Below are positions 12,557 to 29,703 of a DNA stretch of 64,000 nucleotides, piece by piece. The notes under the pieces were generated by a model, which did not search any database, was not told where the DNA came from, and saw only the letters and a list, made by a program, of their open reading frames with translations. The stretch is from Escherichia phage vB_EcoM_JQD51. The position numbers and the translations under genes were made by a program. The DNA is taken from sequence record PV204681. One strand, given 5' to 3'. Within the stretch, counting starts at the first letter, position 1. Every line of letters begins with the position of its first letter.

Positions 12557-13044
12557 GTTTTAATAATCTCAATGATTTCATCTCGGGATAATCCATTGAT
12601 AAGAACGGTTTTCGGACCATCGCACTGGATTTTGTACGATTCAAACAATACACACAACTCTTCTGCTGTATGATATGGACTTGAAATTCCGAGGCGGTTG
12701 AATTTGTCGGTAAGAGGGTCGCAAATAATGTAGAATTTTATACCTGCGATATGTACATTTGGTTGACTAATATTAATGAACACATTAGCGTCATATTTAG
12801 TCAAATTGTTTTGAAGAAATTCTACCATGGCATTAACTGCTTCTGGCATCGCTTCACGTTTCTCTTCGGCGTAACGTGTTGAATATTCCTTTTGCTTTAA
12901 CTTCTTTTTAGCATTTTTCGCTAGAGTAGTACGAAGGTCCGTAAGATAACCAACTGCACGGCCTTTCTTAAAGACCCGGATTCCATCTGTAGAATCACCA
13001 AATGCTGCCACAACCATATCGTTAGTAATCAATTGCATATTCAT
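12544..13044 (-). CDS. alc: Alc-like protein (host transcription termination factor), by position and size
   Basis: ORF track 12544..13107; start moved to Met at 13044 (SD gaggag) giving about 166 aa (T4 Alc 167 aa); lies between pseT block and rnlA as in T4. Confidence 0.5.
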   Translation of the reverse strand: MNMQLITNDMVVAAFGDSTDGIRVFKKGRAVGYLTDLRTTLAKNAKKKLKQKEYSTRYAEEKREAMPEAVNAMVEFLQNNLTKYDANVFINISQPNVHIAGIKFYIICDPLTDKFNRLGISSPYHTAEELCVLFESYKIQCDGPKTVLINGLSRDEIIEIIKTCLK

Positions 13045-13074
13045 AATTTTCTCCTCGTGTTGTTGATAAAAACC

Positions 13075-13104
13075 ATAGTAACACCTTCCTTGGTGTTTGT
13101 AAAC
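13075..13104 (-). promoter_or_regulatory. T4-type early promoter
   Basis: Plus atagta / gtaaac, 18-nt spacer; between rnlA stop and alc start. Confidence 0.45.
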
Positions 13105-13106
13105 CA

Positions 13107-14240
<1,134 letters not shown>

Positions 14241-14259
14241 TCAGTTAGTTTTTTTTTAA

Positions 14260-14289
14260 ATTGTACCACAATCCTTGTGGCATGTAAAC
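14260..14289 (-). promoter_or_regulatory. T4-type early promoter
   Basis: Plus attgta / gtaaac, 18-nt spacer, then SD gagga before rnlA ATG. Confidence 0.45.
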
Positions 14290-14699
14290 TACTTTTTCTT
14301 ATGTTGGATATTCCAAGGCGGGTTGAACTTTTTGATAAAAAGCGGTTCTTCAAGGTCCATTGTTGCGATGGTCATTGAACCAAGTTCGTTGGTGACTGAA
14401 AGGTCAAAACATTGGCGGGCCCAGAATTCAACCTTTTTGCCTTGCATTAAGGCATCCAAAATCATAAGTGATTTTCTTGAATCTGAAGTCTGGTCTTTTC
14501 GATTTATGGCTGTTCGATAATAGTTAATGCGTTTCTTTAAATTCTTGGTTTTACCAATATACACAAGTTCGTCATCTATAGCAATAGCGTATATGACATT
14601 TTTCTTATTAGGGACATCAACTGTTTTAATTGTTGCATCTTCTAATAGCTCCAATTCTGTATATTTAATAAAGGAATATTCGGCGGCAATATCTTTCAT
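14289..14699 (-). CDS. denA: Endonuclease II (GIY-YIG-like)
   Basis: 136-aa ORF (T4 EndoII is 136 aa); VIYAIAIDDELVYIGKT GIY-YIG-type motif; between rnlA and nrdB. Confidence 0.75.
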   Translation of the reverse strand: MKDIAAEYSFIKYTELELLEDATIKTVDVPNKKNVIYAIAIDDELVYIGKTKNLKKRINYYRTAINRKDQTSDSRKSLMILDALMQGKKVEFWARQCFDLSVTNELGSMTIATMDLEEPLFIKKFNPPWNIQHKKK

Positions 14700-14706
14700 A
14701 ATAAAG

Positions 14707-14720
14707 TGGGACCGAAGTCC
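14707..14720 (-). other. UUCG-tetraloop hairpin at the nrdB-denA junction
   Basis: GGGAC-cgaa-GTCCC inverted repeat, 3' arm ends 7 nt before denA AUG; no U-tract. Confidence 0.5.
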
Positions 14721-14725
14721 CGTCC

Positions 14726-15865
14726 TTAGAAATATTTTTTGTATGAATTGATTACATTTTGGTCTACATCATTATCAATTTGTGCGACAAGATAAGAACT
14801 GATTTCAACTTCCTGAGGAGCTGCTTGAACTAAATCAGAGTTCAGATATTCACGAATCCAAGGATACGGATGCTTGGTCGGAGCATCAGTGATTGGGCAT
14901 GGCAAACCACACTGTTTCATACGAGACACAGTCAAGTAATCAACAAAAGCACACATACTCTGCGTATTGATACCTGGGCATGTACCGTCTTTAAAGAGGT
15001 GTGCAGCCCATTCCTTCTCTTGACGGTTAACTTCCATAAAAATGTCAACTGCTTCTTGTTCACATTCTTTAGCAATTTGAACCCACTCATCGCCGTCAAT
15101 ACCAGATTGAAGTTGACGAATAATGTACTGAGTACCCTTGAGGTGGAGTTGTTCGTCACGAGCAATGAACTTCATAATCTTTGCATTACCTTCCATAATT
15201 TCCATATTTTTATGGAAGTTGAAAGTACATGCAAATGATACGTAAAAACGAATAGCTTCCAGAGCGTTGATTACGTGCAGACAGAGGTAAAGAGAACGCA
15301 TTAGTTCGTATTTAGCCTGTTTTACGCCTTCGCTAAACTCGTGATATTCTTCTAAAGCATTCTGGTAAAGGCGAGTCTTGACTAGAACATCATCGTAATA
15401 TTTACCTATTGATTCAGCTCGTTTCATGATTGCTTCGTCTAATACAATTTCATCAAATACCTTAGATGGATCCGTATAAAGATTTCGCATAATATGAGTA
15501 TACGAACGAGAGTGAATAGTTTCACTGAATGTCCATGTTGCAACCCACGTATCTAATGAAGGGTCGGAAATCAGTGCCATAAGTACCGCAGATGGGGCCC
15601 TGCCTTGGATAGAATCTAATAATGATTGATACTTAAGATTGTTTGTAAAGATGTCCTGTTGGAACTGAGGAAGCTTATTGAACTGCGCAGAGTCCAACAT
15701 CAAGTTTACCTCTTCTGGGCGCCAAAAAAACGATAATTGCTTTTCGGTCAAATCTTCAAAAACTTTATGGCGTTGAATATCATAACGCGCAATACCAAGA
15801 CCAGAACCAAAGAACATCGGTTCATTCAAAACATCGACTTGTCGTGTGTTAAAAACTGTACTCAT
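14726..15865 (-). CDS. nrdB: Ribonucleotide reductase small (beta) subunit
   Basis: 379-aa ORF; FFWRPEEV and diiron ferritin-like motifs; uninterrupted (no intron). Confidence 0.92.
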   Translation of the reverse strand: MSTVFNTRQVDVLNEPMFFGSGLGIARYDIQRHKVFEDLTEKQLSFFWRPEEVNLMLDSAQFNKLPQFQQDIFTNNLKYQSLLDSIQGRAPSAVLMALISDPSLDTWVATWTFSETIHSRSYTHIMRNLYTDPSKVFDEIVLDEAIMKRAESIGKYYDDVLVKTRLYQNALEEYHEFSEGVKQAKYELMRSLYLCLHVINALEAIRFYVSFACTFNFHKNMEIMEGNAKIMKFIARDEQLHLKGTQYIIRQLQSGIDGDEWVQIAKECEQEAVDIFMEVNRQEKEWAAHLFKDGTCPGINTQSMCAFVDYLTVSRMKQCGLPCPITDAPTKHPYPWIREYLNSDLVQAAPQEVEISSYLVAQIDNDVDQNVINSYKKYF

Positions 15866-15918
15866 TATATTTTCTCACTTAGTTTAACTCATCCATGAGT
15901 AAATTATAATCAAAAGTC

Positions 15919-18174
15919 TTAAAGCTTACAAGCAGAACAATCTTCAGCTTTAGGTGTTTCTAATTCATAGTCATCTGTACCTGACCCATCACGAGTGTTA
16001 TGATAGTAGAGGTTTTTTCCACCAAAGTACCAGAAGTAAAGCAGATCGTCAAGCATTACCGACATTGGCACTTTACCTTTCTCAAATACCGCAGGGTCAT
16101 AGTAAGTATTAGCAGAAGCAGATTGGCACACCCATTTCAACATGATAGCAACTTGGGTCAAATAAGGTTTATTACCTTTCTTAGCAAGTTTCCACGCGTA
16201 GTCATAAAGACCCACGTTATGTTCGATATTAGGAACAACCTGACGGAAGTTGCCTTCTTTAGATTCTTTAATACTTACTGGACCACGTGGGGGCTCAATC
16301 CCATTTGTAGAGTTCGATACTTGACTGCTTGACTCACAAGGCATGAGTGCAGACAACGTTGAGTTACGAATTCCATGTTCTTTGAGTTCAGCTCGAAGTT
16401 CTTCCCAGTCACAAACGTAGTTTGGAGCTGCGATTTGGTCAATCTTTTTATTGTACCAGTCGATAGGTAATTCGCCTCGAGACCATTTAGTGTCTGAATA
16501 ATACTCGCAAGGTCCTTTTTCTTCGGCCAACTTGATTGATGCTCGGATAAGCCCATATTGTAATCTCTCAAACAGTTCATGAGTTAAATCGTTTGCGTCT
16601 TCATAAGAAGCAAAGTTGCTTGCTAACCAAGCTGCATAGTTCGTAACACCAACACCCAGATTACGACGCTTTTTAGCTTTTAAAGCTTCTGGAACCGGAT
16701 AATCTTGATAGTCTAACAGGTTATCAAGTGCACGTACTTGTACTTCAGCAAGTTCATTAATTTTATCTTGGTCTTGCCAATCAAATTTATCTAATACAAA
16801 AGCAGATAATGTGCATAAACCAATTTCAGCATCGGGACCATTCACATCATTAGTTGGAATAGCGATTTCACAACATAAGTTACTCTGACGAATTGGAGCT
16901 TTTTCACGAATAAATGGTGTGAAGTTGTTAGTGTTATCAACGAACTGAGGATAAATTCGAGCAGTACCAGAACGTTCAGTCATGAACAATTCAAAGAGTT
17001 CTAGTGCTTTGATTCTTTTCTTTCTGATTGTCGGGTCTTTTTCAGCTTTCTCATAAAGCTCACGGAATTTATCTTGATCTTCAAAGAATGAGTAGTATAG
17101 TTCGCCTGACATTTCGTGAGGGCTAAATAAAGTAATATAATCATTTTTACCAAGGCGTTCCATCATAAGGTCATTAATCTGAATTCCGTAGTCCATATGT
17201 CGAATACGGTTTTCATCCACGCCTTTGTTATTTTTCAGAACTAATAGGTTCTCTACTTCTAAGTGCCACATCGGATAATACGCTGTAGCAGCACCACCAC
17301 GAATACCACCTTGAGAACAAGATTTTACTGCAGTTTGGAAATGTTTCCAGAACGGAATAACACCCGTATGTCGAACTTCGCCCATACCGATCTTAGAACC
17401 TTCTGCACGAAGCATACCAACGTTGATACCGATACCAGCTCGTTTAGAAATATATTCAATAATTGATGCTGAAGTTTTGTTAATAGATTTTAACGAATCA
17501 CCTGCTTCAATAACTACACAACTAGAGAACTGGCGAGTTGGAGTACGAGCACCCGCCATAATTGGGGTTGGCAATGAAACTTGATGAGTAGAAACGGCAT
17601 CATAAAAACGAATAATATGTTTCAAACGGTCATGAGTTTCGTCTTGGTGTAAGGCCATACCAATAGCCATGATAGCAAACTGTGGAGTTTCATAAATCTT
17701 CCCAGTTGTTTTATCTTTAACTAGATATTTTTCTTTAAGCTGCATAGCACCGGCATAAGTCAGGTCAAAGTCTCGTTCGTGTTTAATCTGTGAATCGAGA
17801 TAAATGATTTCTTCTGCTGAATATTGAGACAACAGCTCAGGGTCATATTTGCCTTCATTAACACAGTAAGAAATATGGTCGATAAAAGCAGGCGGTTCAA
17901 ACTGCCCGTATACATCTTTACGAAGTGCAAACATTAGTCCTTTAGCGGCGACATACTGATAATCAGGTTCTTCGACAGAAATCGAGTTAGCTGCAACTTT
18001 AATACAAATCTTCTGAATATCTTTGGTGCTCATCCCGTCGACAAGATGGAGTTTAATTTCTTCATATAATTCATATGGGTCAATTTGTGTTCCTTCACAT
18101 TGCCAAGTTAAGACTTGAATAATTTTCTGTGCATCAAAATTTTGGGATACCCCACTGCTCTTAGTTACTTGCAT
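15919..18174 (-). CDS. nrdA: Ribonucleotide reductase large (alpha) subunit
   Basis: 751-aa ORF; NLCCEIAIPT active-site region and C-terminal CxxC tail; T4 NrdA is 754 aa. Confidence 0.93.
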   Translation of the reverse strand: MQVTKSSGVSQNFDAQKIIQVLTWQCEGTQIDPYELYEEIKLHLVDGMSTKDIQKICIKVAANSISVEEPDYQYVAAKGLMFALRKDVYGQFEPPAFIDHISYCVNEGKYDPELLSQYSAEEIIYLDSQIKHERDFDLTYAGAMQLKEKYLVKDKTTGKIYETPQFAIMAIGMALHQDETHDRLKHIIRFYDAVSTHQVSLPTPIMAGARTPTRQFSSCVVIEAGDSLKSINKTSASIIEYISKRAGIGINVGMLRAEGSKIGMGEVRHTGVIPFWKHFQTAVKSCSQGGIRGGAATAYYPMWHLEVENLLVLKNNKGVDENRIRHMDYGIQINDLMMERLGKNDYITLFSPHEMSGELYYSFFEDQDKFRELYEKAEKDPTIRKKRIKALELFELFMTERSGTARIYPQFVDNTNNFTPFIREKAPIRQSNLCCEIAIPTNDVNGPDAEIGLCTLSAFVLDKFDWQDQDKINELAEVQVRALDNLLDYQDYPVPEALKAKKRRNLGVGVTNYAAWLASNFASYEDANDLTHELFERLQYGLIRASIKLAEEKGPCEYYSDTKWSRGELPIDWYNKKIDQIAAPNYVCDWEELRAELKEHGIRNSTLSALMPCESSSQVSNSTNGIEPPRGPVSIKESKEGNFRQVVPNIEHNVGLYDYAWKLAKKGNKPYLTQVAIMLKWVCQSASANTYYDPAVFEKGKVPMSVMLDDLLYFWYFGGKNLYYHNTRDGSGTDDYELETPKAEDCSACKL

Positions 18175-18261
18175 ATATTCCTCAGTATAGGTTGATAGAC
18201 ATTACTCCAAACGGGATAGTATTTATCCCGTTAATTTATTATACACTTTTAAACTGAAGCG

Positions 18262-18516
18262 TTAATTATTCTTAGCAATAATTTCTTTGTATTCTTTAGG
18301 AGTCAAGACCGTGATATCGAAATAAACCACTGGTTCTTTTTCCATACCGTAACCACCACAAAATTCACGATATTCATAAATTCGTTCATGTGAATAACAA
18401 ACGAATCGTTCACCTTTAACTGTGATTTCACTATTTGGTGAAGGGATATCTAGTTCGGTAGGATTTTTCATTTCAAAAATTGTGGTGCCGTATGAATTAA
18501 TAAAACGTAAAATCAT
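18262..18516 (-). CDS. Hypothetical protein (nrdA.1 position)
   Basis: 84-aa ORF. Confidence 0.45.
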   Translation of the reverse strand: MILRFINSYGTTIFEMKNPTELDIPSPNSEITVKGERFVCYSHERIYEYREFCGGYGMEKEPVVYFDITVLTPKEYKEIIAKNN

Positions 18517-18517
18517 T

Positions 18518-19378
18518 TTATACCGCCATTTTAGCTTTGATAGCTGGATGTGATTCGTAATTTTTAAGAATAAAGTCTTTAGGACGAAGTTTTAATACAT
18601 ATTCGATTTGTTCTTCGGTTGATAGATGTCTAAATTTGTATGGTAATCCGTTAATAACTAATTCACACAGTTCTTTAGGCTCACGTCGTAAAACTTCTTT
18701 GCATTGTTCTACATGATTGCTGTAGATATGCGTGTTGCCGCCTGAGAACACTAAATCACCTGGGATAAGGTTACACATCTTCGCTACAATATGCGTCAAG
18801 GCAGCGTACGAGGCAATGTTGAACGGCAGGCCCAAGAAAACATCTACACTGCGTTGATACCATTGTAAATCAAGATGACCATTACGCACATTGAACTGGT
18901 AGAACATATGGCAAGGAGGAAGTGCCATTTGATTTATTTCAGCTGGATTCCAGGCAGAAACAATTTGACGACGATCAGTTGGTAATTTTTTAATACGGTC
19001 GATTGTTTCAACTAATTGGTCTACACCGCCGAAATCACGCCATTGTTTACCATATATAGGACCAAGTTCACCGCTATGGTACCCAAGGTCTTTTGCCTGA
19101 TTTTCGTAATTATCGTCCCAAATAGTTTTACCTTCAATTAGACTACCATGGGTACGAAGACGTAATTCGTTAACATTAGTAGAACCGGACATGAACCACA
19201 GTAGTTCGGCAATACAAGCTTTCCATGCTAATTTCTTAGTTGTTACTGCAGGGAATCCTTTAGTCAGGTCCCAACGTAATTTAGTTCCGAACAGGGCAAT
19301 TGTTCCTGTGCCTGTACGGTCGTCTGTTTCATAGCCGTTTTCAAGGATATTTTTAATTAAATCTTGATATTGTTTCAT
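18518..19378 (-). CDS. td: Thymidylate synthase
   Basis: 286-aa ORF (T4 Td 286 aa); ALPPCHMFYQF catalytic-Cys motif; uninterrupted (no intron). Confidence 0.93.
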   Translation of the reverse strand: MKQYQDLIKNILENGYETDDRTGTGTIALFGTKLRWDLTKGFPAVTTKKLAWKACIAELLWFMSGSTNVNELRLRTHGSLIEGKTIWDDNYENQAKDLGYHSGELGPIYGKQWRDFGGVDQLVETIDRIKKLPTDRRQIVSAWNPAEINQMALPPCHMFYQFNVRNGHLDLQWYQRSVDVFLGLPFNIASYAALTHIVAKMCNLIPGDLVFSGGNTHIYSNHVEQCKEVLRREPKELCELVINGLPYKFRHLSTEEQIEYVLKLRPKDFILKNYESHPAIKAKMAV

Positions 19379-19391
19379 TTAGCACCTATAA

Positions 19392-20349
<958 letters not shown>

Positions 20350-20631
20350 TCAAAACCCCTTTTCAATAAACCATTCAGTGGCTTTATTAGCGTCAAAGAA
20401 TAACTCTTCATATGTCTTTTCTTTGTTTTCAAAAACTGTCACACAAACACGTTGACATTCTCCGCAGTATTCTTCTGACATACTCAAAGCGTCAGAAAAC
20501 ATTTCATTAAATTCACTTAAATCGGGATTATGCAATGCGTTAAAAATTGCATAATCGAATTCGTCATTCATAAATTCAAATACAAAAATCATATTATTTT
20601 TCCTCAAACAGACTTTTTCACAATTTTCCAA
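20350..20631 (-). CDS. Hypothetical protein (frd.x position)
   Basis: 93-aa ORF. Confidence 0.45.
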   Translation of the reverse strand: MENCEKVCLRKNNMIFVFEFMNDEFDYAIFNALHNPDLSEFNEMFSDALSMSEEYCGECQRVCVTVFENKEKTYEELFFDANKATEWFIEKGF

Positions 20632-20861
20632 TCAGCTTTAAACGATTCAATGTCAGAGTGGTAAATCCAGAATCCTGCACTTTCACCATCTTCATAGAGT
20701 GGACATCCATCGCATTCATCTTCCCAACCCATATCGCGTAAAAGATGTTCAGCTTTTTCAACAAGTTCAGCGTCTTTACCGACGATGTTGAAGTACCATT
20801 TACCTCTAACTTCAGAATCTTTGATGCTCTGGCGTTGCAATCTCATTTTATTCTCCTTCAC
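20604..20861 (-). CDS. Hypothetical protein (frd.x position)
   Basis: 85-aa ORF. Confidence 0.45.
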   Translation of the reverse strand: MKENKMRLQRQSIKDSEVRGKWYFNIVGKDAELVEKAEHLLRDMGWEDECDGCPLYEDGESAGFWIYHSDIESFKADWKIVKKSV

Positions 20862-20907
20862 TTTTATTTGATAGGGCTACTATAACATAGCCCTATCTTG
20901 TTATAAA

Positions 20908-21300
20908 CTACTTTTTAAAAGTTTTTTGCAAAAGTTTGATGATTTCGTCGACGTTGGTTTCGTCTACGATACAATGGATTTTTGTTACACCTAAAGTTAT
21001 ACCTTCGTTAGTAGGTTGAGGCTTTACTAAATCTACCTCAATAAAGTATTTGAACTCGTCAGGATAGATCTCAAAATAAGTTTCAATTCCACCACCGGCA
21101 GAACATACAGTACCATCTTCCATAGTTACACTTACTACGTTTGACGTATCGCTATCATAATCAGGTTCCATTCCGTTTACAACAAAACTAGGCCCGTGGA
21201 GTTCAATCAATTTTAACATCTTAGCGTTATTGTGTGGTGCTTCTTGAACAAAGTCGTCTTTAAATAAAGGGTTAATGATATAAGATTTTCCGATTTCCAT
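20908..21300 (-). CDS. Hypothetical protein (frd.x position)
   Basis: 130-aa ORF. Confidence 0.45.
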   Translation of the reverse strand: MEIGKSYIINPLFKDDFVQEAPHNNAKMLKLIELHGPSFVVNGMEPDYDSDTSNVVSVTMEDGTVCSAGGGIETYFEIYPDEFKYFIEVDLVKPQPTNEGITLGVTKIHCIVDETNVDEIIKLLQKTFKK

Positions 21301-21384
21301 TTTGATTTCCTCATGTTGTTGATAGAACTATAATATCACATCTAGGGAAGAAGTAAACAACTTTTTTTGGCAATTTACAGATAC

Positions 21385-21408
21385 TCAAAAGGGAGACCGA
21401 AGTCTCCC
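21385..21408 (-). terminator. Intrinsic terminator downstream of gene 32 (GGGAGAC-uucg-GUCUCCC + U4)
   Basis: Inverted repeat 21391-21408 with cgaa loop, A-run 21387-21390. Confidence 0.75.
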
Positions 21409-21414
21409 AATTTA

Positions 21415-22314
21415 TTATAGACCAGCTAACAGGTCATCGAGGTCGCCATCGTCAGAAGACGAGGAACTCATGAAGTCATCTTCAGTTTTTGCAGAACTAA
21501 AGGCTTCCATGTCTTTATCAAAATCGTCGAGGTCAGAAGCAACTTTATCTGCAACAGAAGCTGCGGCAGCTGCTGCACCACCAAGAGCGGCAGTACCAAG
21601 AACTTGAGTAAATTTAGTATTCAATTCTTCAAACGATTTGAACTTATCTTTAGAAGTCATTTCAGAAAGGTCAACCATTTGTTCGAACAATTCTTTCTGG
21701 AAAGATTCATCATCAATGTTTGGAATCGCAGATTGATTCAGGAATTTAGATTCGTCGTAGTTACTGAAACCAGAAACCTGTTTAACTTTCAGCACAAAGT
21801 TAGCACCTTCCCATGGGCAAGTTACATCAACAGGAGTTTCACCCATTTCAGTATCGACTGCAATCATTGCATTGATTTTGTCCCAAATCTTTTTACCGAA
21901 ACGATATTTGAATACTTTACCTTCATTATCTGGAGCTTGTGGGTCTTTAACAACCAGGATATTAGCCCAATAAGAAGTTTTACGTTTCAGTTGAGAATAT
22001 TCTGTTTTGTTTGTATTGTACAGGTCATTTTTACTAATGTACTGACATACAGGACAAGAGTCGTAATCGCCGTGTGTAGATGAACAGGTTTCAATATACC
22101 ATTTACCATTTTTCTTGAACCCGTGGTTAACAAGAATTGCAAACGGAAGTGCGTCATCTGTTTTTGCCGGCAGGAAACGAATTACCGCTTGACCATTACC
22201 GGATGCATCGAGTTTCAGCTTCCATTCACCTTTATCTTCTGAAGAGAAACCTTTGTTACCATTCAGTTTAGCCATCTGAGCTGCAAGGTCTGCGGTACTT
22301 TTACGTTTAAACAT
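21415..22314 (-). CDS. 32: gp32 single-stranded DNA-binding protein
   Basis: 299-aa ORF; N-terminal [18 protein letters not shown], zinc-site CxxxxxxCPVC region and acidic C-terminus as in T4 gp32. Confidence 0.95.
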
Positions 22315-22385
22315 TTTATTTGCCTTTATTTAGATTAATTAAATTTTACAGTTGGTTGCTACGACACTTATACCTCGTAGCTGGT
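22315..22385 (-). promoter_or_regulatory. Gene 32 leader: candidate autoregulatory translational operator (pseudoknot-like hairpin plus A/U-rich tract)
   Basis: Inverted repeat gctacgagg...tcgtagc followed by uuaauuaaucuaaauaaa tract immediately 5' of the gene 32 AUG. Confidence 0.5.
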
Positions 22386-22391
22386 ATGATT

Positions 22392-22399
22392 TATTTATA
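22392..22399 (-). promoter_or_regulatory. Late promoter TATAAATA upstream of gene 32
   Basis: Plus tatttata = minus TATAAATA. Confidence 0.5.
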
Positions 22400-22427
22400 A
22401 AGTAATTTAACACACAAGAAATAAAGC

Positions 22428-23081
22428 TTAATACTTACATGATTTGATTGTTTCTATGAACAATTTCTTAGCAGCATTTCCATCGATTTGAAGTATTTTT
22501 CGATATGCCTTTAATCTGGTAGAATAATTTTGCCAGACTAAGTTATCGGTGAGTTCGTCGTGCTTATCTATAATATTCAAAAATGAGTCCAACAATAAGA
22601 AAGTCTCAAATGAAATTATATTGCTTTGTAGCAATTTGAATATGTAGCTCGACTGAACGTTGTTATTATAATCAAATATCTCTTGAAGCGCACTAACTTC
22701 AACTTTCTTACTGAAATAGTAGATGTTACGTACATCTTCAGCAAACGTCTCTTTAGCTTGTTTGAGACGTCCAATATATTCCCTATAGAAAACTAATGCA
22801 TCAGCGTCTGATATCTCACCAATCCATGCGTCTTGGTTAGCAACTAAGTTGCTTATGAATATCAAGGTGAGTTCCTTCAATTTATATTTCTCTGATAGTT
22901 TTTCAAAGAAATATTTATCTCGGCGTTTTTGATACGCATTATCAGAAACACGCATGCACCAGTTATATTTGATTACGTCATACCGACCACCAAAATGGTT
23001 TTTGCACATCAAGTATAGTTTATATACCGATTTTCCATTAATATAACGTTCTCCATCAGGAGGCATGCGTATTTTAATCAT
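22428..23081 (-). CDS. 59: gp59 helicase loader
   Basis: 217-aa ORF (T4 gp59 217 aa), collinear identity. Confidence 0.92.
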   Translation of the reverse strand: MIKIRMPPDGERYINGKSVYKLYLMCKNHFGGRYDVIKYNWCMRVSDNAYQKRRDKYFFEKLSEKYKLKELTLIFISNLVANQDAWIGEISDADALVFYREYIGRLKQAKETFAEDVRNIYYFSKKVEVSALQEIFDYNNNVQSSYIFKLLQSNIISFETFLLLDSFLNIIDKHDELTDNLVWQNYSTRLKAYRKILQIDGNAAKKLFIETIKSCKY

Positions 23082-23416
23082 AATAAGAAATCTAACGTAT
23101 TAGTTTTTTCGCCACGAGCAACTGATGGGCGAAGCATGTTTTCGTCAATTGCTTCGCTTGTAATTTTTTCAACAATTCCTGTAGGAATAAATTTAGCAAA
23201 TTGTGTTTCTGGAATAGAATTTTCTTCCAAGAAAGCAGTTGTTGCTTCTAAATAAGACATACCAAATTGTTCAACCATGGATTCGATAATGAATCCGTTT
23301 TCTTGTCGGTCAAGCAATTTAGCGATATCATCTTTATCGTGTTTTACTGCTAATTCTTGTTCAGATAAACCGGCCTCATCAACCGGTTTAATATCACTTA
23401 GTGAAAACTGTGTCAT
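23078..23416 (-). CDS. 33: gp33 late-transcription co-activator
   Basis: 112-aa ORF (T4 gp33 112 aa) between 59 and dsbA. Confidence 0.8.
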   Translation of the reverse strand: MTQFSLSDIKPVDEAGLSEQELAVKHDKDDIAKLLDRQENGFIIESMVEQFGMSYLEATTAFLEENSIPETQFAKFIPTGIVEKITSEAIDENMLRPSVARGEKTNTLDFLL

Positions 23417-23681
23417 AAAGCTCGACTACCTCTTCGTTTTCAGCTTCAAATTGGTCACGAGCGTCTTTATGATAAAGAGCTAACAAACGATTAAACATTT
23501 TTCCATCGACGCCAAGCTCTTCTTTAGCACGAGTACGAATGTCTTTAATCAGTTCATTATAACCAGAAATTTTAAGTTTGTTATCAGAAGCTTCCTTGAC
23601 TAGTTTAGCCAGTTCTTCACCATGCACATCTTGATTAAATTCAACTGCTTCTTTCTTAGCCATGTTTACCTCAGAATTCAT
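23394..23681 (-). CDS. dsbA: DsbA dsDNA-binding protein (late transcription enhancer)
   Basis: 95-aa ORF at conserved position between 33 and rnh. Confidence 0.7.
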   Translation of the reverse strand: MNSEVNMAKKEAVEFNQDVHGEELAKLVKEASDNKLKISGYNELIKDIRTRAKEELGVDGKMFNRLLALYHKDARDQFEAENEEVVELYDTVFTK

Positions 23682-24588
23682 TAATTACACTTGTTAATTT
23701 AGAAAGACCAGATTTTACAAAGTATGAATAAATCTTGCCTTTAGGTTGTGGTTTATATGAGTTATAATACTCTATAATGGTTGAAGCAATATTATCAGGG
23801 ATATAATCAAAATCAATGAGAACCAAATTTTCTTGATACCGTTTATATTCTTCTGCACTTAATAATACTTCAGCTTGAGAACGGTCGTTAGCAATTGCTT
23901 CAATAATTGAAGTTTTCATGCTCGGAGTTCGTTCACCATCAACTCTGGTAAACCAGAAGTCGCCACGAACTCGAACAGATGCAACCCCGTCTTTACGGTC
24001 ACCTTTAAGAATTTTAGTCATGCAATCAATTTCAGCAGAACCGTTCTTAATTTTAACCCATTTTTTCTGTGGTGGTGACCACTGTTTAACGTTAGGATAT
24101 TTGTGTAATTGTGTAAAGTCACCGTCTGATGCAACAATACATACCTTATGTCCAGCTAATGACAAATATTTAGTTAATACACCGATATGGTCATCCGCTT
24201 CATATTTGTCAATATCCATTACAACGTATGGCATGTATTTCTTAATCTCATCAACAACTTGACGGAGCGCAGTAAAATATCCTTCCCAATCCCACTTTGA
24301 AGCTTCACGGTCGGTTTTACGATTTTTCTTGTAATAGTAAGCAAAGTCACGACGCCAATAACCTGAAGTAGCATTATCCATACACAATACAAATTTTGTA
24401 TAGCCTTGCTTACGGAACATCACTACGTTTTTACGAATTGAATTCAAGATTACATGGCGAACCATCGGAACAGTAATTTTATCGCCGTCTTCAAAGTTGT
24501 TTAATGCGGCTGCTAATGCAATGTTACTAAAGTCGGCAAGTGCAATACCTTCTTTGTAATCTTCATCCAACATCATTTCTAAATCCAT
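23671..24588 (-). CDS. rnh: RNase H (5'-3' exonuclease, FEN-1 family)
   Basis: 305-aa ORF (T4 RNase H 305 aa); acidic FEN-type active-site residues; conserved position. Confidence 0.88.
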   Translation of the reverse strand: MDLEMMLDEDYKEGIALADFSNIALAAALNNFEDGDKITVPMVRHVILNSIRKNVVMFRKQGYTKFVLCMDNATSGYWRRDFAYYYKKNRKTDREASKWDWEGYFTALRQVVDEIKKYMPYVVMDIDKYEADDHIGVLTKYLSLAGHKVCIVASDGDFTQLHKYPNVKQWSPPQKKWVKIKNGSAEIDCMTKILKGDRKDGVASVRVRGDFWFTRVDGERTPSMKTSIIEAIANDRSQAEVLLSAEEYKRYQENLVLIDFDYIPDNIASTIIEYYNSYKPQPKGKIYSYFVKSGLSKLTSVINEF

Positions 24589-24653
24589 ATGAACCTCTTG
24601 TTCAGTTAGTCAACTTGACTATAGTAACATACTCATTTGAAAGCGTAAACTGG

Positions 24654-24661
24654 TATAAATA
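24654..24661 (+). promoter_or_regulatory. Late promoter TATAAATA for gene 34
   Basis: Exact TATAAATA 31 nt upstream of gp34 ATG; overlaps divergent early-promoter -35 for rnh. Confidence 0.7.
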
Positions 24662-24691
24662 AGTATTATTGAAACAATAAAGGAAAAACGA

Positions 24692-27600
24692 ATGGCCGAC
24701 ATCAAACGTAAGTTCAGAGCCGAAGACGGTCTGGACGCCGGTGGCGACAAGATTGTTAACGTAGCATTAGCCGACCGTACAGTAGGTACTGATGGCGTAA
24801 ACGTTGACTTCCTGGTACAAGAAAACACCGTTCAAGTATATGATTCTACGCGTGGATATAACAAAGGATTTGTTGTTCTTTATGACAACCGTTTATATCA
24901 AGCAATAAATGATATCGTGTCTCCTTCCGGGGCATTTAACCTTTTACAATGGCGTGCAGTTCGTACCGATGCACAATGGATAACTGTCGCTTCTGGGACT
25001 TATCAACTTTCTTCAGGTGAATCGATTTCGGTTAACACTGGTGCCGGCAATGATATGGTTTTCACATTGCCAAATGCGCCGGTTGATGGTGATACTGTTG
25101 TTTTGGCTGATATTGGTGGAAGAACCGGGACAGTTAAAGTACAGATTAACGCGTCTGTGCAGAGTATTTTAAACTTTAGAGGTGAACAAGTTCGTTCAGT
25201 TTTAATGACGCGACCACGTTCACAACTAGTGTTTGTGTTTAGTAATCGTTTGTGGCAGATGTATATCATTGATTACGGTAAAGAATCAATCACTGTTACA
25301 CCTGCGGCACCATATCAAGCACAAGCAAATGATTTTATCGTTCGTCGTTTTACTAGTGCAGCACCAATCAACATTACACTTCCACGTAATGCTAACAATG
25401 GTGATATAATCAGCCTAGTCGATTTAGATAAATTAAACCCACTGTATCATACAATTGTTAAAACATTTGATGATACAACGTCTATTGGTGAAGTCGGGAC
25501 TCATATTGCCGAAGGCAGAAATGACTCTGACGCGTTTTTTGTTTTTGATGCTGCAAATAGTTTATGGCGTATATGGGAAGGCGACCAGAAATCGCGTCTT
25601 CGTATTATCCGCGCGGATTCAAATATTCGTCCAAATGAAGAAGTTCTTATTTTTGGCACAAATAACGCTACAACCGGAACTATTAATCTTACGCTACCTA
25701 CCGGAATTTTGAGTGGTGACACTGTTAAAATTTCAATGAACTACATGCGTAAAGGCCAAACAGTAAAAATTAAAGCTGCCGAAGGTGATACAATTGCTTC
25801 TTCTGTTGCGTTGCTTCAGTTCCCTAAACGTTCTGAATATCCACCTGATGCTCAATGGGTCTCTGTTACTGAACTAGAATTCAATGGCACTACTTCATAT
25901 GTTCCTGTATTAGAATTATCGTATATCGAAGACACTGATTCTGACACTCATTATTGGGTTGTGCAACAGAATGTCCCTACGGTAGAACGTGTTGATGCTG
26001 GATCTGATGCTACACGAGCTCGTTTAGGTGTTATTGCTCTTGCTACTCAAGCGCAAGCAAATGTTGATTTAGAGAATACTCCAGCTAAAGAAGTTGCTAT
26101 TACTCCTGAAACGTTGGCAAATCGTACAGCAACTGAAGCTCGACGCGGTATCGCCAAAATTGCTACAACAGCGCAAGTTAACCAGAATTCCACAGCGTCA
26201 TTTGTGGACGATACTATTGTTACGCCTAAAAAACTAAATGAGCGTACAGCAACTGAAACTCGTCGCGGTCTTGCTGAAATTGCTACTCAGGCTGAAACCG
26301 ATGCTGGTCTTGATGACACAACGATTATTACGCCTAAGAAATTACAGGCACGTCAGGGTTCCGAAACACTATCGGGTATAGTTAAATATGTATCGACTAC
26401 TTCAGCTATTCCTGCTGAAACTCGTGGTGCCGCAGGCACTAACGTTTATAATAAAACCGTAAATAATTTAACTATTTCTCCTAAAGCCCTTGACCAATAT
26501 AAAGCAACGTATACTCAACAAGGTGCAGTAATTTTAGCTATTGATAGTGAAGTAATTGCTGGTCAATCTCAGTCTGGATACTCTCACGCTGTAGTAACTC
26601 CTGAAACACTACATAAGAAAACTTCTACTGATGGACGTATTGGTTTAATTGAAATTGCTACGCAAGCAGAAACTAATGCTGGGACTGATTATACACGTGC
26701 AGTAACGCCTAAGACGTTAAATGATAGGAAAGCTACGGAAGGATTATCCGGCATAGCCGAAATTGCTACGCAAGTTGAATTTGATACTGGAACTGATGAT
26801 ACTCGTATCTCGACTCCACTGAAAATTAAAACTCATTTTGATTCTTCTGACCGTACCAGTGTTAATTCTGATTCCGGACTTATTGAAGAAGGAACCTTGT
26901 GGAACCATTATACTCTTGATATTTCTAAAGCAAATGAAACACAACGTGGTACACTTCGCGTAGCGACCCAGGCAGAATCTAATGCAGGAACTTTAGATGA
27001 TGTTCTTATTACTCCTAAAAAGCTTTTAGGGACTAAGTCCACTGAAACGTCTGAAGGCGTAATTAAGGTTGCTACTCAGGCTGAAACTGTAACAGGAACT
27101 TCTGCTAATACTGCTGTATCTCCTAAGAATTTAAAATGGATTGTGCAGAGTGAACCAACATGGGCTGCTACTACGGTGATAAGAGGTTTTGTTAAAACTT
27201 CATCTGGTTCAATTACATTCGTTGGTAATGATACAGTCGGTTCTACACAGAACTTAGAGCTATACGAGAAAAATAGCTATGCAGTATCACCGTATGAATT
27301 AAACCGTGTATTAGCAAATTACTTGCCATTAAAAGCAAAAGCTGCTGACACGAATTTATTGGATGGTCTAGATTCATCTCAGTTCATTCGTAGGGACATT
27401 GCACAGACGGTTAATGGTTCACTAACCTTAACCCAACAAACTAATCTGAGTGCCCCTCTTGTATCATCTAGTACTGCTACGTTTGGTGGTTCAGTTTCGG
27501 CAAATAGTACATTAACTATTTCTAATACTGGAACGGCAACTCGTCTTATTTTTGAGAAAGGACCTCAAACTGGAACTAACCCAGCACAGACTATGACTAT

Positions 27601-28567
27601 CAGAGTTTGGGGAAATCAGTTTGGTGGCGGTTCAGATACAACACGTTCTACTGTATTTGAAGTTGGTGATGAAACATCTAATCACTTTTATTCTCAACGT
27701 AATAAAGCCGGGAATATAACGTTTAGCATTAACGGTACTGTGATGCCGATAAATGTTAACGCTTCGGGCTCTTTGAACACGAACGGCGTTGCAACATTTG
27801 GTAGTTCAGTTACTGCTAATGGTGAATTCATCAGCAAGTCAGCAAATGCTTTCAGAGCAATTAGTGGTGATTACGGATTCTTTATTCGTAATGATGGTGC
27901 TAATGTCTATTTTATGCTTACTGCATCGGGTGATCAGACTGGTGGTTTTAATGGATTACGTCCTTTAGCTATTAATAATACATCCGGTCAGGTTACAATT
28001 GGCGAAGGATTAATTATTGCTAAAGGTGCTACTATAAATTCAGGTGGTTTAACTGTTAACTCGAGAATTCGTTCTCAGGGCACTAAAACATCTGATTTAT
28101 ATACCCGTGCGCCAACATCTGATACGGTAGGATTCTGGTCAATTGACATTAATGATTCAGCTACTTATAACCAGTTCCCGGGTTATTTTAAAATGGTTGA
28201 AAAAACTAATGAAGTGACTGGGCTTCCATACTTAGAACGTGGCGAAGAAGTTAAATCTCCTGGTACTTTGACTCAGTTTGGTAATACGCTTGATTCTCTT
28301 TACCAAGATTGGATTACTTATCCAACAACTCCAGAAGCACGTACAACTCGTTGGACACGCACATGGCAGAAAACTAAAAATTCTTGGTCAAGTTTTGTTC
28401 AGGTATTTGATGGTGGAAACCCTCCTCAACCTTCTGATATTGGCGCTTTACCTTCTGATAATGCAACAATCGGAAACTTGACAATAAGAGATTTCTTAAG
28501 GATTGGTAACGTCCGCATTATTCCAGACCCTGTGAATAAATCTGTTAAATTCGAGTGGATTGAATAA
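24692..28567 (+). CDS. 34: gp34 long tail fibre proximal subunit
   Basis: 1291-aa ORF (T4 1289 aa); first plus-strand late gene after divergent junction; repetitive fibre sequence. Confidence 0.9.
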   Translation: MADIKRKFRAEDGLDAGGDKIVNVALADRTVGTDGVNVDFLVQENTVQVYDSTRGYNKGFVVLYDNRLYQAINDIVSPSGAFNLLQWRAVRTDAQWITVASGTYQLSSGESISVNTGAGNDMVFTLPNAPVDGDTVVLADIGGRTGTVKVQINASVQSILNFRGEQVRSVLMTRPRSQLVFVFSNRLWQMYIIDYGKESITVTPAAPYQAQANDFIVRRFTSAAPINITLPRNANNGDIISLVDLDKLNPLYHTIVKTFDDTTSIGEVGTHIAEGRNDSDAFFVFDAANSLWRIWEGDQKSRLRIIRADSNIRPNEEVLIFGTNNATTGTINLTLPTGILSGDTVKISMNYMRKGQTVKIKAAEGDTIASSVALLQFPKRSEYPPDAQWVSVTELEFNGTTSYVPVLELSYIEDTDSDTHYWVVQQNVPTVERVDAGSDATRARLGVIALATQAQANVDLENTPAKEVAITPETLANRTATEARRGIAKIATTAQVNQNSTASFVDDTIVTPKKLNERTATETRRGLAEIATQAETDAGLDDTTIITPKKLQARQGSETLSGIVKYVSTTSAIPAETRGAAGTNVYNKTVNNLTISPKALDQYKATYTQQGAVILAIDSEVIAGQSQSGYSHAVVTPETLHKKTSTDGRIGLIEIATQAETNAGTDYTRAVTPKTLNDRKATEGLSGIAEIATQVEFDTGTDDTRISTPLKIKTHFDSSDRTSVNSDSGLIEEGTLWNHYTLDISKANETQRGTLRVATQAESNAGTLDDVLITPKKLLGTKSTETSEGVIKVATQAETVTGTSANTAVSPKNLKWIVQSEPTWAATTVIRGFVKTSSGSITFVGNDTVGSTQNLELYEKNSYAVSPYELNRVLANYLPLKAKAADTNLLDGLDSSQFIRRDIAQTVNGSLTLTQQTNLSAPLVSSSTATFGGSVSANSTLTISNTGTATRLIFEKGPQTGTNPAQTMTIRVWGNQFGGGSDTTRSTVFEVGDETSNHFYSQRNKAGNITFSINGTVMPINVNASGSLNTNGVATFGSSVTANGEFISKSANAFRAISGDYGFFIRNDGANVYFMLTASGDQTGGFNGLRPLAINNTSGQVTIGEGLIIAKGATINSGGLTVNSRIRSQGTKTSDLYTRAPTSDTVGFWSIDINDSATYNQFPGYFKMVEKTNEVTGLPYLERGEEVKSPGTLTQFGNTLDSLYQDWITYPTTPEARTTRWTRTWQKTKNSWSSFVQVFDGGNPPQPSDIGALPSDNATIGNLTIRDFLRIGNVRIIPDPVNKSVKFEWIE

Positions 28568-28575
28568 GAGGTATT

Positions 28576-29703
28576 ATGGAAAAATTTATGGCTAAGTTTG
28601 GACAAGGATACGTCCAAACGCCATTTTTATCGGAAAGCAATTCAGTACGATTTAAATTAAGCATAGCGGGCTCTTGCCCGCTATCAACATCTCCTGCTTA
28701 TATTAAGTTCCAGGATAATCCACTTGGGTCCCAGGTTTTTTCTGTTGGATTAAACGTTCGTGTAATAAATCCTACAACAGGTGCAGTAGTTGAATCTAAG
28801 TCATATAATTTCTCTACTGAAAACGACGCCACGTCAAGCGCATTCGTTACTTACATGGACACATACGCTTCTAATTTTATATTTGCTCTTGTTACTAACG
28901 CTAAAACAAACTTTCCTCCTGAAGTTCTCGCATGGTTTACTAAAGCTGGAAGTTCTGTTATTCCATTAGCTCAACAAGTTTTAAATATAGTGGACATTTC
29001 TTATTCGGCATTTTATATTTCTGGTAAGAATGCTATAGCACTAGAACATATTAAGTATAGTAATAAGAAAACTTCAACCGACTATAGTACACCACTTGAT
29101 GTTGTGTACGACACGATTAATGATATTGGTGCTACCGGCTTCCCTAGTCGTACGTACGAATCGTCAGACACATTTTTATCCGCTGTTGGAGGTACTAATA
29201 ATGAAATTAAAAGGATGCCTACAACGTCCCTTATTACACCTCTCGCTGGGTATAAATTGAAGGCTGGAGATTTCCTTTATATGAAATTCCAACTAATGGC
29301 CGATGCTGATTTGTTAGCACAAGGGACGACACGACTTTCTATTCGGTTCTTTAAATCTCCTTCTACTTCACCTATTTCATTTAAGGATATAAACTTTGAT
29401 GGGGGTGCAGGTGAATGGAAGATATATGAAGACTACATAGAAATTCCTGCCGGTGCTGACGGGTTCACGATTTATTGTTATCGTACAGCTCCAGTCGGGC
29501 AAGGTGGATTAAGAAACGTTATATTCACTGAAGTATCATGTAATGGAAGCGTTTCAAAACCTGCCGAGTTTGGTATAAACGGTATTCGTGTAAATTATGT
29601 TTCAGAATCTTTAAGTGCCCCAGACATAATGACATTACCTACTCAATCTTCAACTGATACTGGTAAGGTATTTGGACAAGAATTTAAAGAAGCGTCAGAA
29701 TAA
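28576..29703 (+). CDS. 35: gp35 long tail fibre hinge connector
   Basis: 375-aa ORF, T4-sized, between 34 and 36. Confidence 0.85.
   Translation: MEKFMAKFGQGYVQTPFLSESNSVRFKLSIAGSCPLSTSPAYIKFQDNPLGSQVFSVGLNVRVINPTTGAVVESKSYNFSTENDATSSAFVTYMDTYASNFIFALVTNAKTNFPPEVLAWFTKAGSSVIPLAQQVLNIVDISYSAFYISGKNAIALEHIKYSNKKTSTDYSTPLDVVYDTINDIGATGFPSRTYESSDTFLSAVGGTNNEIKRMPTTSLITPLAGYKLKAGDFLYMKFQLMADADLLAQGTTRLSIRFFKSPSTSPISFKDINFDGGAGEWKIYEDYIEIPAGADGFTIYCYRTAPVGQGGLRNVIFTEVSCNGSVSKPAEFGINGIRVNYVSESLSAPDIMTLPTQSSTDTGKVFGQEFKEASE

Follow-up and report, generated by a model that had tools for sequence, protein, structure and literature searches.

A probable RB69-type translational operator in the gene 32 leader of a T4-like Escherichia phage

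Does the leader of gene 32 in this phage carry the translational operator through which gp32 would control its own synthesis, and if so, which of the known forms does it take? We addressed this question within the window, by which we mean the whole 64,000-nt stretch of DNA analysed here. The intergenic leader between genes 59 and 32 is 113 nt long and occupies exactly 22315-22427 on the minus strand. By analogy with related phages, the gene 32 product gp32 would act as the repressor and its own gene would be the regulated target. T4-type operators are defined by a 5' pseudoknot of ~28-30 nt followed by an unstructured A/U tract of >40 nt with UAAA/UUAA repeats (PMC535899, PMC3014915). The initial annotation had proposed that the leader matches this architecture, and it does so in both parts: a pseudoknot of this size lies at the 5' side, and an unstructured A/U tract of more than 40 nt then extends over the ribosome-binding site. 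The leader bears every defining feature of a T4-type gene 32 translational operator that can be tested from sequence. We put the probability that it is the gene 32 translational operator, in its RB69-type form, at about 0.9. Coordinates of the individual features are collected in Table 1.

Table 1. Features of the gene 59-gene 32 region of the window, listed in the direction of transcription.
Feature	Positions	Strand	Remarks
Gene 59	22428-23081	minus	From the ORF listing and Pfam; stop codon UAA at 22430-22428
Putative MotA box, TTAAGCTTTA	22422-22431	minus	Overlaps the gene 59 stop codon (22430-22428)
Putative middle-promoter -10 element, TAAATT	22404-22409	minus	TGT just before; TAnnnT type
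Late promoter consensus, TATAAATA	22392-22399	minus	Exact octamer; four bases before the pseudoknot
Stem 1, 5' arm, AUACC	22383-22387	minus	Pairs with GGUAU 22374-22370
Loop 1, single A	22382	minus	A invariant in 10/10 pseudoknot types
Stem 2, 5' arm, GCUACGA	22375-22381	minus	Partner UCGUAGC 22364-22358; in MFE and centroid folds
Stem 1, 3' arm, GGUAU	22370-22374	minus	Sits within the stem 2 hairpin loop
Loop 2, AAGUG	22365-22369	minus	Length (2-7 nt) and sequence vary among the 10 types
Stem 2, 3' arm, UCGUAGC	22358-22364	minus	Perfect 7-bp pairing with GCUACGA
A/U-rich tract, 43 nt, AACCAACUGUAAAAUUUAAUUAAUCUAAAUAAAGGCAAAUAAA	22315-22357	minus	81% A+U; reaches the AUG through the Shine-Dalgarno
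AACUGU hexamer	22353-22348	minus	Just 3' of the pseudoknot
Shine-Dalgarno, AAGG	22326-22323	minus	Inside the A/U tract
Gene 32 CDS (gp32, 299 aa)	21415-22314	minus	AUG 22314-22312; Pfam PF08804, E 4e-64
Intrinsic terminator-like hairpin and U-run	21391-21408	minus	Directly 3' of the gene 32 stop; GGGAGACTTCGGTCTCCC then TTTTGAG

The window genome is that of a T4-like phage (Straboviridae, Tevenvirinae). Over the gene 59-gene 32 segment, its identity is 99.8% with Escherichia phage F2 and ~98% with numerous Mosigvirus isolates. Identity to RB69 is 88-93% across 13025-27487, and identity to T4 is only 76-89%, in five aligned blocks across 18831-23385. The genome is essentially that of an already deposited phage, F2-like and RB69-like. 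Phage F2, the best-matching record, is labelled Tequatrovirus, and the other closest relatives of window positions 13025-29384 are labelled Mosigvirus. Like RB69 and T2, the window is without segG between genes 59 and 32.

The encoded gp32 is identical to RB69 gp32 at 298 of 299 residues, the sole difference being T for N. Its Pfam domain spans residues 39-238. The N-terminus, MFKRKSTA, is the same as in T4 and RB69, with the basic N-terminal cooperativity segment present, and the acidic C-terminus is intact and identical to that of RB69. T4 gp32 is ~85% identical to the protein encoded here (254/299 residues in a full-length alignment).

The inverted repeat that had been noticed upstream of the gene 32 AUG consists of a perfect 7-bp pairing between GCUACGA (22381-22375) and UCGUAGC (22364-22358). 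The two G residues that had been counted with its first arm belong instead to a second helix, in which GGUAU (22374-22370) pairs with AUACC (22387-22383). The element had been described as hairpin- or pseudoknot-like; with the second helix present, it is no mere hairpin but a pseudoknot of the H type. This compact structure lies at 22387-22358 on the minus strand, -73 to -44 from the AUG, and reads AUACC-A-GCUACGA-GGUAU-AAGUG-UCGUAGC.

Nested folding yields no stable element other than stem 2 (GCUACGA/UCGUAGC). For the 36-nt hairpin region the folding energy is -10.7 kcal/mol (z = -3.45), a stability matched by 1 of 200 shuffles. Taken as a whole, the 93-nt leader has no exceptional stability (z = -0.8), which fits a mostly unstructured tract. 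Standard MFE folding is nested, gives stem 2 only and cannot display stem 1. As programs of this kind are blind to pseudoknots, stem 1 was tested by comparison instead. None of the curated Rfam families covers the gene 32 pseudoknot, and covariance models cannot encode pseudoknots. An Rfam scan of 20000-25000 at a permissive E of up to 10 returned three chance-level matches, none within the leader.

For the comparison, leaders were drawn from 80 IMG/VR loci, 20 named phage records, T4 and RB69. Ten distinct sequence versions of the compact pseudoknot were present among the sampled leaders. A plain MAFFT alignment of the cores put the gaps of loop 2 in the wrong place and gave way to an N-padded, structure-registered alignment. 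In this alignment of ten types, which was placed by hand and is thus biased toward the pseudoknot structure, 95% of pair cells were standard pairs and 8 of the 12 pairs changed on both sides. Stem 2 was paired in 100% of cells over the ten types, with both-side changes in four of its seven pairs. The inner four pairs of stem 1 formed in 10 of 10 types, and three of these four had changed on both sides. When the 3' partners were slid by 1-3 columns, pairing fell to 28-47%. Only 4 of the 10 types have the outermost pair of stem 1 (A22387-U22370 in the window), so the conserved core amounts to 4 + 7 bp.

Because hand registration favours the structure, a registration-free geometric scan was added to offset this bias. 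The blind scan asked for a stem 1 of at least 4 bp, a loop 1 of 1 nt, a stem 2 of 7 bp, no junction, a loop 2 of 2-8 nt, and at most one G-U pair. Of 66 gene 32 leaders, 14 matched this geometry, and every match fell between -57 and -80. Elsewhere in these loci the background rate was 0.0036 per 95 nt, so that ~0.24 matches would be expected across all 66 leaders. A strict geometry (5 + 7 bp, Watson-Crick pairs only) occurred three times on both strands of the 64-kb window, versus 0.33 in block shuffles. Pseudoknot-compatible pairing, anticipated in the initial annotation, is indeed present in the leader, and covariation and the blind scan both point to each of its two stems.

The other two strict matches in the window lie at 20875-20905 and 20466-20497 on the plus strand, local genes being on the minus strand. 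The former falls in a short gap just downstream of a frd.2-like ORF (20908-21300, minus). Both may be chance matches or overlapping hairpins.

The A/U-rich stretch that had been pointed out (uuaauuaaucuaaauaaa, 22342-22325) is part of a longer tract, which begins where the pseudoknot ends, and it holds most of the UAAA/UUAA repeats. Across its length, the tract contains UAAA four times and UUAA twice; the full UUAAA pentamer is absent from the 43 nt. The tract is predicted to be largely unpaired, with a mean unpaired probability of 0.70 and a centroid fold without pairs. By analogy with the studied operators, it is presumed to serve as the lattice for cooperative gp32 binding.

Variation among relatives follows this division of the leader. 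In Mosigvirus isolates the pseudoknot is invariant and the tract varies by indels of UAAA- and AAUAAUCUAAAU-type units, with intergenic lengths of 113-125 nt. T2-type leaders differ in the number of UUAAA units. A fixed pseudoknot beside a changing tract is what one would expect if nucleation takes place at a specific site and the lattice beyond it is of loose specificity. Among leaders L099-L104 and the window tract (22315-22357), the promoter block likewise stays fixed together with the pseudoknot while the adjoining tract gains and loses repeat units. The tract in the window is the shortest in the RB69-type group sampled.

A late promoter had also been proposed for this leader. The exact octamer TATAAATA is present at 22399-22392 and its position is conserved, but its frequency is not above chance, with six copies found in the window versus 7.0 expected. 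The motif alone therefore proves nothing, and support has to come from its positional conservation in relatives. It occupies the same position in all RB69-type leaders (RB69 and the Mosigvirus relatives), even those with altered flanks. In phage WFK, for example, the octamer is kept though both flanks have changed (CCGTATAAATAAAACAUACC). Most other pseudoknot-bearing types have TATAAATA 3-21 nt upstream of the pseudoknot. On this comparative basis, the late-promoter call is plausible. As the T4-type late consensus occupies -13 to -6 (PMC1524935), the late +1 is predicted at ~22386, the second base of stem 1. Late transcripts are thus predicted to start with base 1 or 2 of the pseudoknot, which would place it at their very 5' end. 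A start at 22386 would drop the outermost stem 1 pair and leave 4 bp. This is no serious objection because 4 bp is the number conserved across phages.

A MotA-type middle promoter is also probable just upstream of the pseudoknot. The MotA box has the consensus (a/t)(a/t)(a/t)TGCTTtA and precedes a good -10 element of the sigma-70 type by 12 +/- 1 bp (PMC2988021). The candidate box, TTAAGCTTTA, has one mismatch to this consensus, and the spacer to its -10 element is 12 nt and ends in TGT. Middle promoters require an excellent -10 element (PMC2988021); TAAATT is only a moderate one, agreeing with TATAAT at four of six positions, with TGn upstream. RB69 and T2-type leaders likewise have a MotA box, with a -10 element after it, just upstream of the pseudoknot. 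A sigma-70 promoter scan gave no minus-strand match in the leader. Its plus-strand match at 22361-22390 was regarded as chance.

T4 had been named as the system to which the leader corresponds. That correspondence holds in alignment, where CCAGCUAUGAGGUA...UCAUAGCACCAACUGU of the T4 operator aligns with CCAGCUACGAGGUA...UCGUAGCAACCAACUGU here, but RB69 is the closer match, both in its pseudoknot and in its gp32. The 30-nt RB69 pseudoknot is base-for-base identical to that of the window (AUACCAGCUACGAGGUAUAAGUGUCGUAGC). RB69 also shares the upstream late-promoter octamer, a MotA-box-like sequence, and the gene order, with 59 followed by 32 and no segG between. Both A/U tracts contain UAAA repeats and the AACUGU hexamer. 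The tract in the window is 2 nt shorter than that of RB69 (43 versus 45 nt) and differs by several substitutions, reading UAAAAUUUAAUUAAUC where RB69 has UAAAUAAAUUAAAUAAUC. Near the Shine-Dalgarno, AGGCAAAUAAA in the window replaces AGGUAAAUAUA of RB69, and position -8 is C instead of U. The substitutions near the Shine-Dalgarno fall within -8 to -21, the site of a small hairpin proposed for RB69 (PMC535899).

The RB69 leader was studied by Borjac-Natour, Petrov and Karam (2004, Virol J 1:4; PMC535899). A T4-like pseudoknot was predicted, and its region was sensitive to RNase V1, and thus structured. Residues A(-1) to A(-45) were hypersensitive to DMS and DEPC, and thus unstructured, and were protected by gp32. 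The gp32 footprint was strong from ~U(-14) to G(-61) and weak from U(-2) to G(-9). RB69 gp32 represses the translation of its own mRNA, and the RB69 and T4 proteins each repress either operator (PMC535899). RB69 further possesses ~40 extra untranslated nt upstream that are without a T4 counterpart, and has no ORF 32.1 (segG) (PMC535899); both statements hold for the window. From the identity of the pseudoknot and the near-identity of gp32 to those of RB69, we infer that gp32 of this phage would bind the leader specifically and repress translation of its own mRNA.

The T4 operator consists of a pseudoknot at ~-67 to -40 and a tract of UUAAA repeats (PMC3014915). Autogenous repression in T4 is reported to require the pseudoknot as well as the UUAAA/UAAA elements (PMC535899). 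Overall architecture and position are as in the window. Stem 2 is one compensated pair apart (U-A in T4, C-G in the window), and the single-A loop 1 and the ACCAACUGU after the pseudoknot are common to both. Stem 1 is UGCC/GGUA with a G-U pair in T4 versus AUACC/GGUAU in the window, and the T4 tract has full UUAAA repeats where that of the window does not. T4 carries the homing-endonuclease gene segG, absent from the window, between genes 59 and 32, and its pseudoknot overlaps the segG 3' end. Its late TATAAATA is situated well upstream of the pseudoknot, inside segG, the gene that contains the middle as well as the late promoters of gene 32 in T4 (PMC2988022). RNase E cleavage at -71 trims all T4 transcripts to just upstream of the pseudoknot (PMC3014915). 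T4 in this way arrives at a similar near-5'-terminal pseudoknot by another route, that of RNase E processing.

The gene 32 pseudoknot of T2/T6 has an NMR structure (PDB 2TPK, cited in PMC3014915). Its H-type topology is that of the window, with a one-nt loop 1 spanning the 7-bp stem 2 and with stem 1 abutting stem 2. The abutting stems of T2 support coaxial stacking. T2 differs from the window in stem 1 (UGACC/GGUCA), in the length of loop 2 (7 nt, UACAUCG, versus 5 nt), and in the distance from the late promoter to the pseudoknot (17 nt versus 4 nt).

Our model joins the sequence elements, covarying pairing, RB69 pseudoknot identity and gp32 near-identity found in this analysis to the nucleation, cooperative spreading and repression published for T4 and RB69; the use of the promoters, the transcript 5' ends and a possible RNase E site enter it by inference. 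Gene 32 mRNA would arise from read-through transcripts, from the late promoter at TATAAATA, and from a middle promoter that is probable and would depend on MotA. At its 5' end, the leader would fold into a stem 1 of 4-5 bp, a loop 1 of one nt, a stem 2 of 7 bp, and a loop 2 of 5 nt. Once gp32 is in excess of the available single-stranded DNA, one molecule would bind at the pseudoknot. Additional gp32 monomers would join cooperatively in the 3' direction along the 43-nt tract, until the Shine-Dalgarno and AUG are covered. Ribosome binding would be blocked at the covered ribosome-binding site. New single-stranded DNA would then draw gp32 off, allowing translation to restart.

The pseudoknot could instead act mainly as a 5'-terminal shield protecting gene 32 mRNA from RNase E and 5'-end-dependent decay. 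It would then not be a gp32 nucleation site, and any repression would be due solely to gp32 binding the A/U tract non-specifically. A late start at ~22386 would indeed set the pseudoknot at the extreme 5' end. In T4, the RNase E cut at -71 leaves the pseudoknot, which begins at -67, near-terminal, and no T4 mRNA is more stable than that of gene 32 (PMC3014915). However, such a role does not account for the reported requirement for the T4 pseudoknot together with the UUAAA/UAAA elements in autogenous repression, nor for the gp32 footprints of T4 and RB69, each of which reaches into the pseudoknot (PMC535899). Since stabilising and nucleating roles are compatible, stabilisation is more likely to be an added function than a replacement, and we consider the shield an improbable substitute for the operator.

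The stem 2 hairpin is very unlikely to end gene 59 transcription as an intrinsic terminator or attenuator. A 7-bp, G+C-containing hairpin located 41 nt past the gene 59 stop codon could suggest this function, but no U-run follows it, the next bases being AACCAACUGU, and the terminator reading was rejected for this reason. A terminator scan skips this hairpin yet calls the one after gene 32. Moreover, T4 polycistronic transcripts read through into gene 32 (PMC3014915), and termination would leave the covarying stem 1 unexplained. Least probable of all, an origin of the inverted repeat and TATAAATA as chance features of an A/T-rich intergenic region would agree with the unremarkable octamer count (6 versus 7.0 expected in the window) and with a leader z of only -0.8, but is effectively refuted by compensatory changes in both stems over ten sequence types, by exact conservation of the element in Mosigvirus relatives while the flanks change, and by the blind scan (14 of 66 leaders versus ~0.24 expected).

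The strong terminator-like hairpin after gene 32, GGGAGAC-TTCG-GTCTCCC at 21391-21408, looks bidirectional, as its minus-strand T-run has a weaker plus-strand counterpart. It probably marks the 3' end of gene 32 mRNA. Phage NBG1 has an annotated terminator at the equivalent spot after gene 32, and a terminator downstream of gene 32 has been predicted in five of six T4-like genomes (PMC1524935).

Outside the RB69-, T4- and T2-type leaders, the compact pseudoknot occurs with new compensated stems in Klebsiella phages Lion_ER11 and HMGUkp2, in Dhakavirus AnYang, and in several IMG/VR genomes. Possible expanded pseudoknots with longer loops were recognised by eye in two further phages and are plausible. 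In Yersinia phage TG1 (Tegunavirus; L089, ~-90 to -45, also L029/L030), stem 1 would be UGACA/UGUCA and stem 2 GGUGUAG/CUACAUC. In Acinetobacter phage AC4 (Lazarusvirus; L094, ~-95 to -30), stem 1 would be CUCUUAUA/UAUAAGAG (8 bp) and stem 2 GGUGUAC/GUACAUC.

Two short repeats recur in the sampled leaders. Almost every Tevenvirinae gene 32 leader has AACUGU immediately 3' of the pseudoknot. Pseudoknot-less leaders (Karamvirus myPSH1140, Gelderlandvirus STML-198, and others) have three to four copies at 10-13 nt spacing. The loci concerned are L008-L016, L022, L027, L085 and L086, at ~-65 to -23 from the gene 32 AUG. These repeats run into the last gene 59 codons, which are nearly invariant at the nucleotide level. 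The background frequency of AACUGU is ~0.4-0.6 per kb. Leaders of KVP40 and of marine/cyanophage-like contigs contain AAUAC(A/G) in 2-4 copies at ~9-10 nt spacing. AAUAC averages 2.2 copies in the last 70 nt of these leaders versus 0.13 expected (L035-L082, and L097, which is KVP40). The gp32 proteins of these distant phages are 38-49% identical. Many AAUAC repeats are preceded by a conserved AU(U/G)AUGA...GUG(G/A)A motif, and Pseudotevenvirus leaders (L095, L096) carry AAACUAAAC-type repeats instead of AAUAC.

A search of the searchable full-text literature, with older subscription papers outside its reach, gave nothing relevant for AACUGU or AACTGT with gp32 or gene 32 and no description of AACUGU or AAUAC repeats, which is no proof of novelty. 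Tentatively, and against the odds in our own estimate, the pseudoknot may be one of several solutions for gp32 autoregulation, with lineage-specific short repeats supplementing it or taking its place as specific elements for gp32 recognition or nucleation. If true, the AACUGU of the window (22353-22348) would be a part of the operator that has a function but has so far escaped description. This reading of the short repeats concerns the wider family more than this window.

The gene 32 leader operator is an already known element, and the window holds an ordinary copy of one studied in T4, T2 and RB69. The textbook autoregulatory circuit would be intact in an F2-like, RB69-like genome, which matters little for this window in itself. 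What is gained are exact annotation coordinates for the pseudoknot, the operator tract, the late promoter, the probable middle promoter and the terminator. A 2010 review asked for a broader study of gp32 autocontrol across diverse T4-related phages (PMC3014915). The comparative leader sequences assembled here may be of modest wider use as a starting set for such a study.
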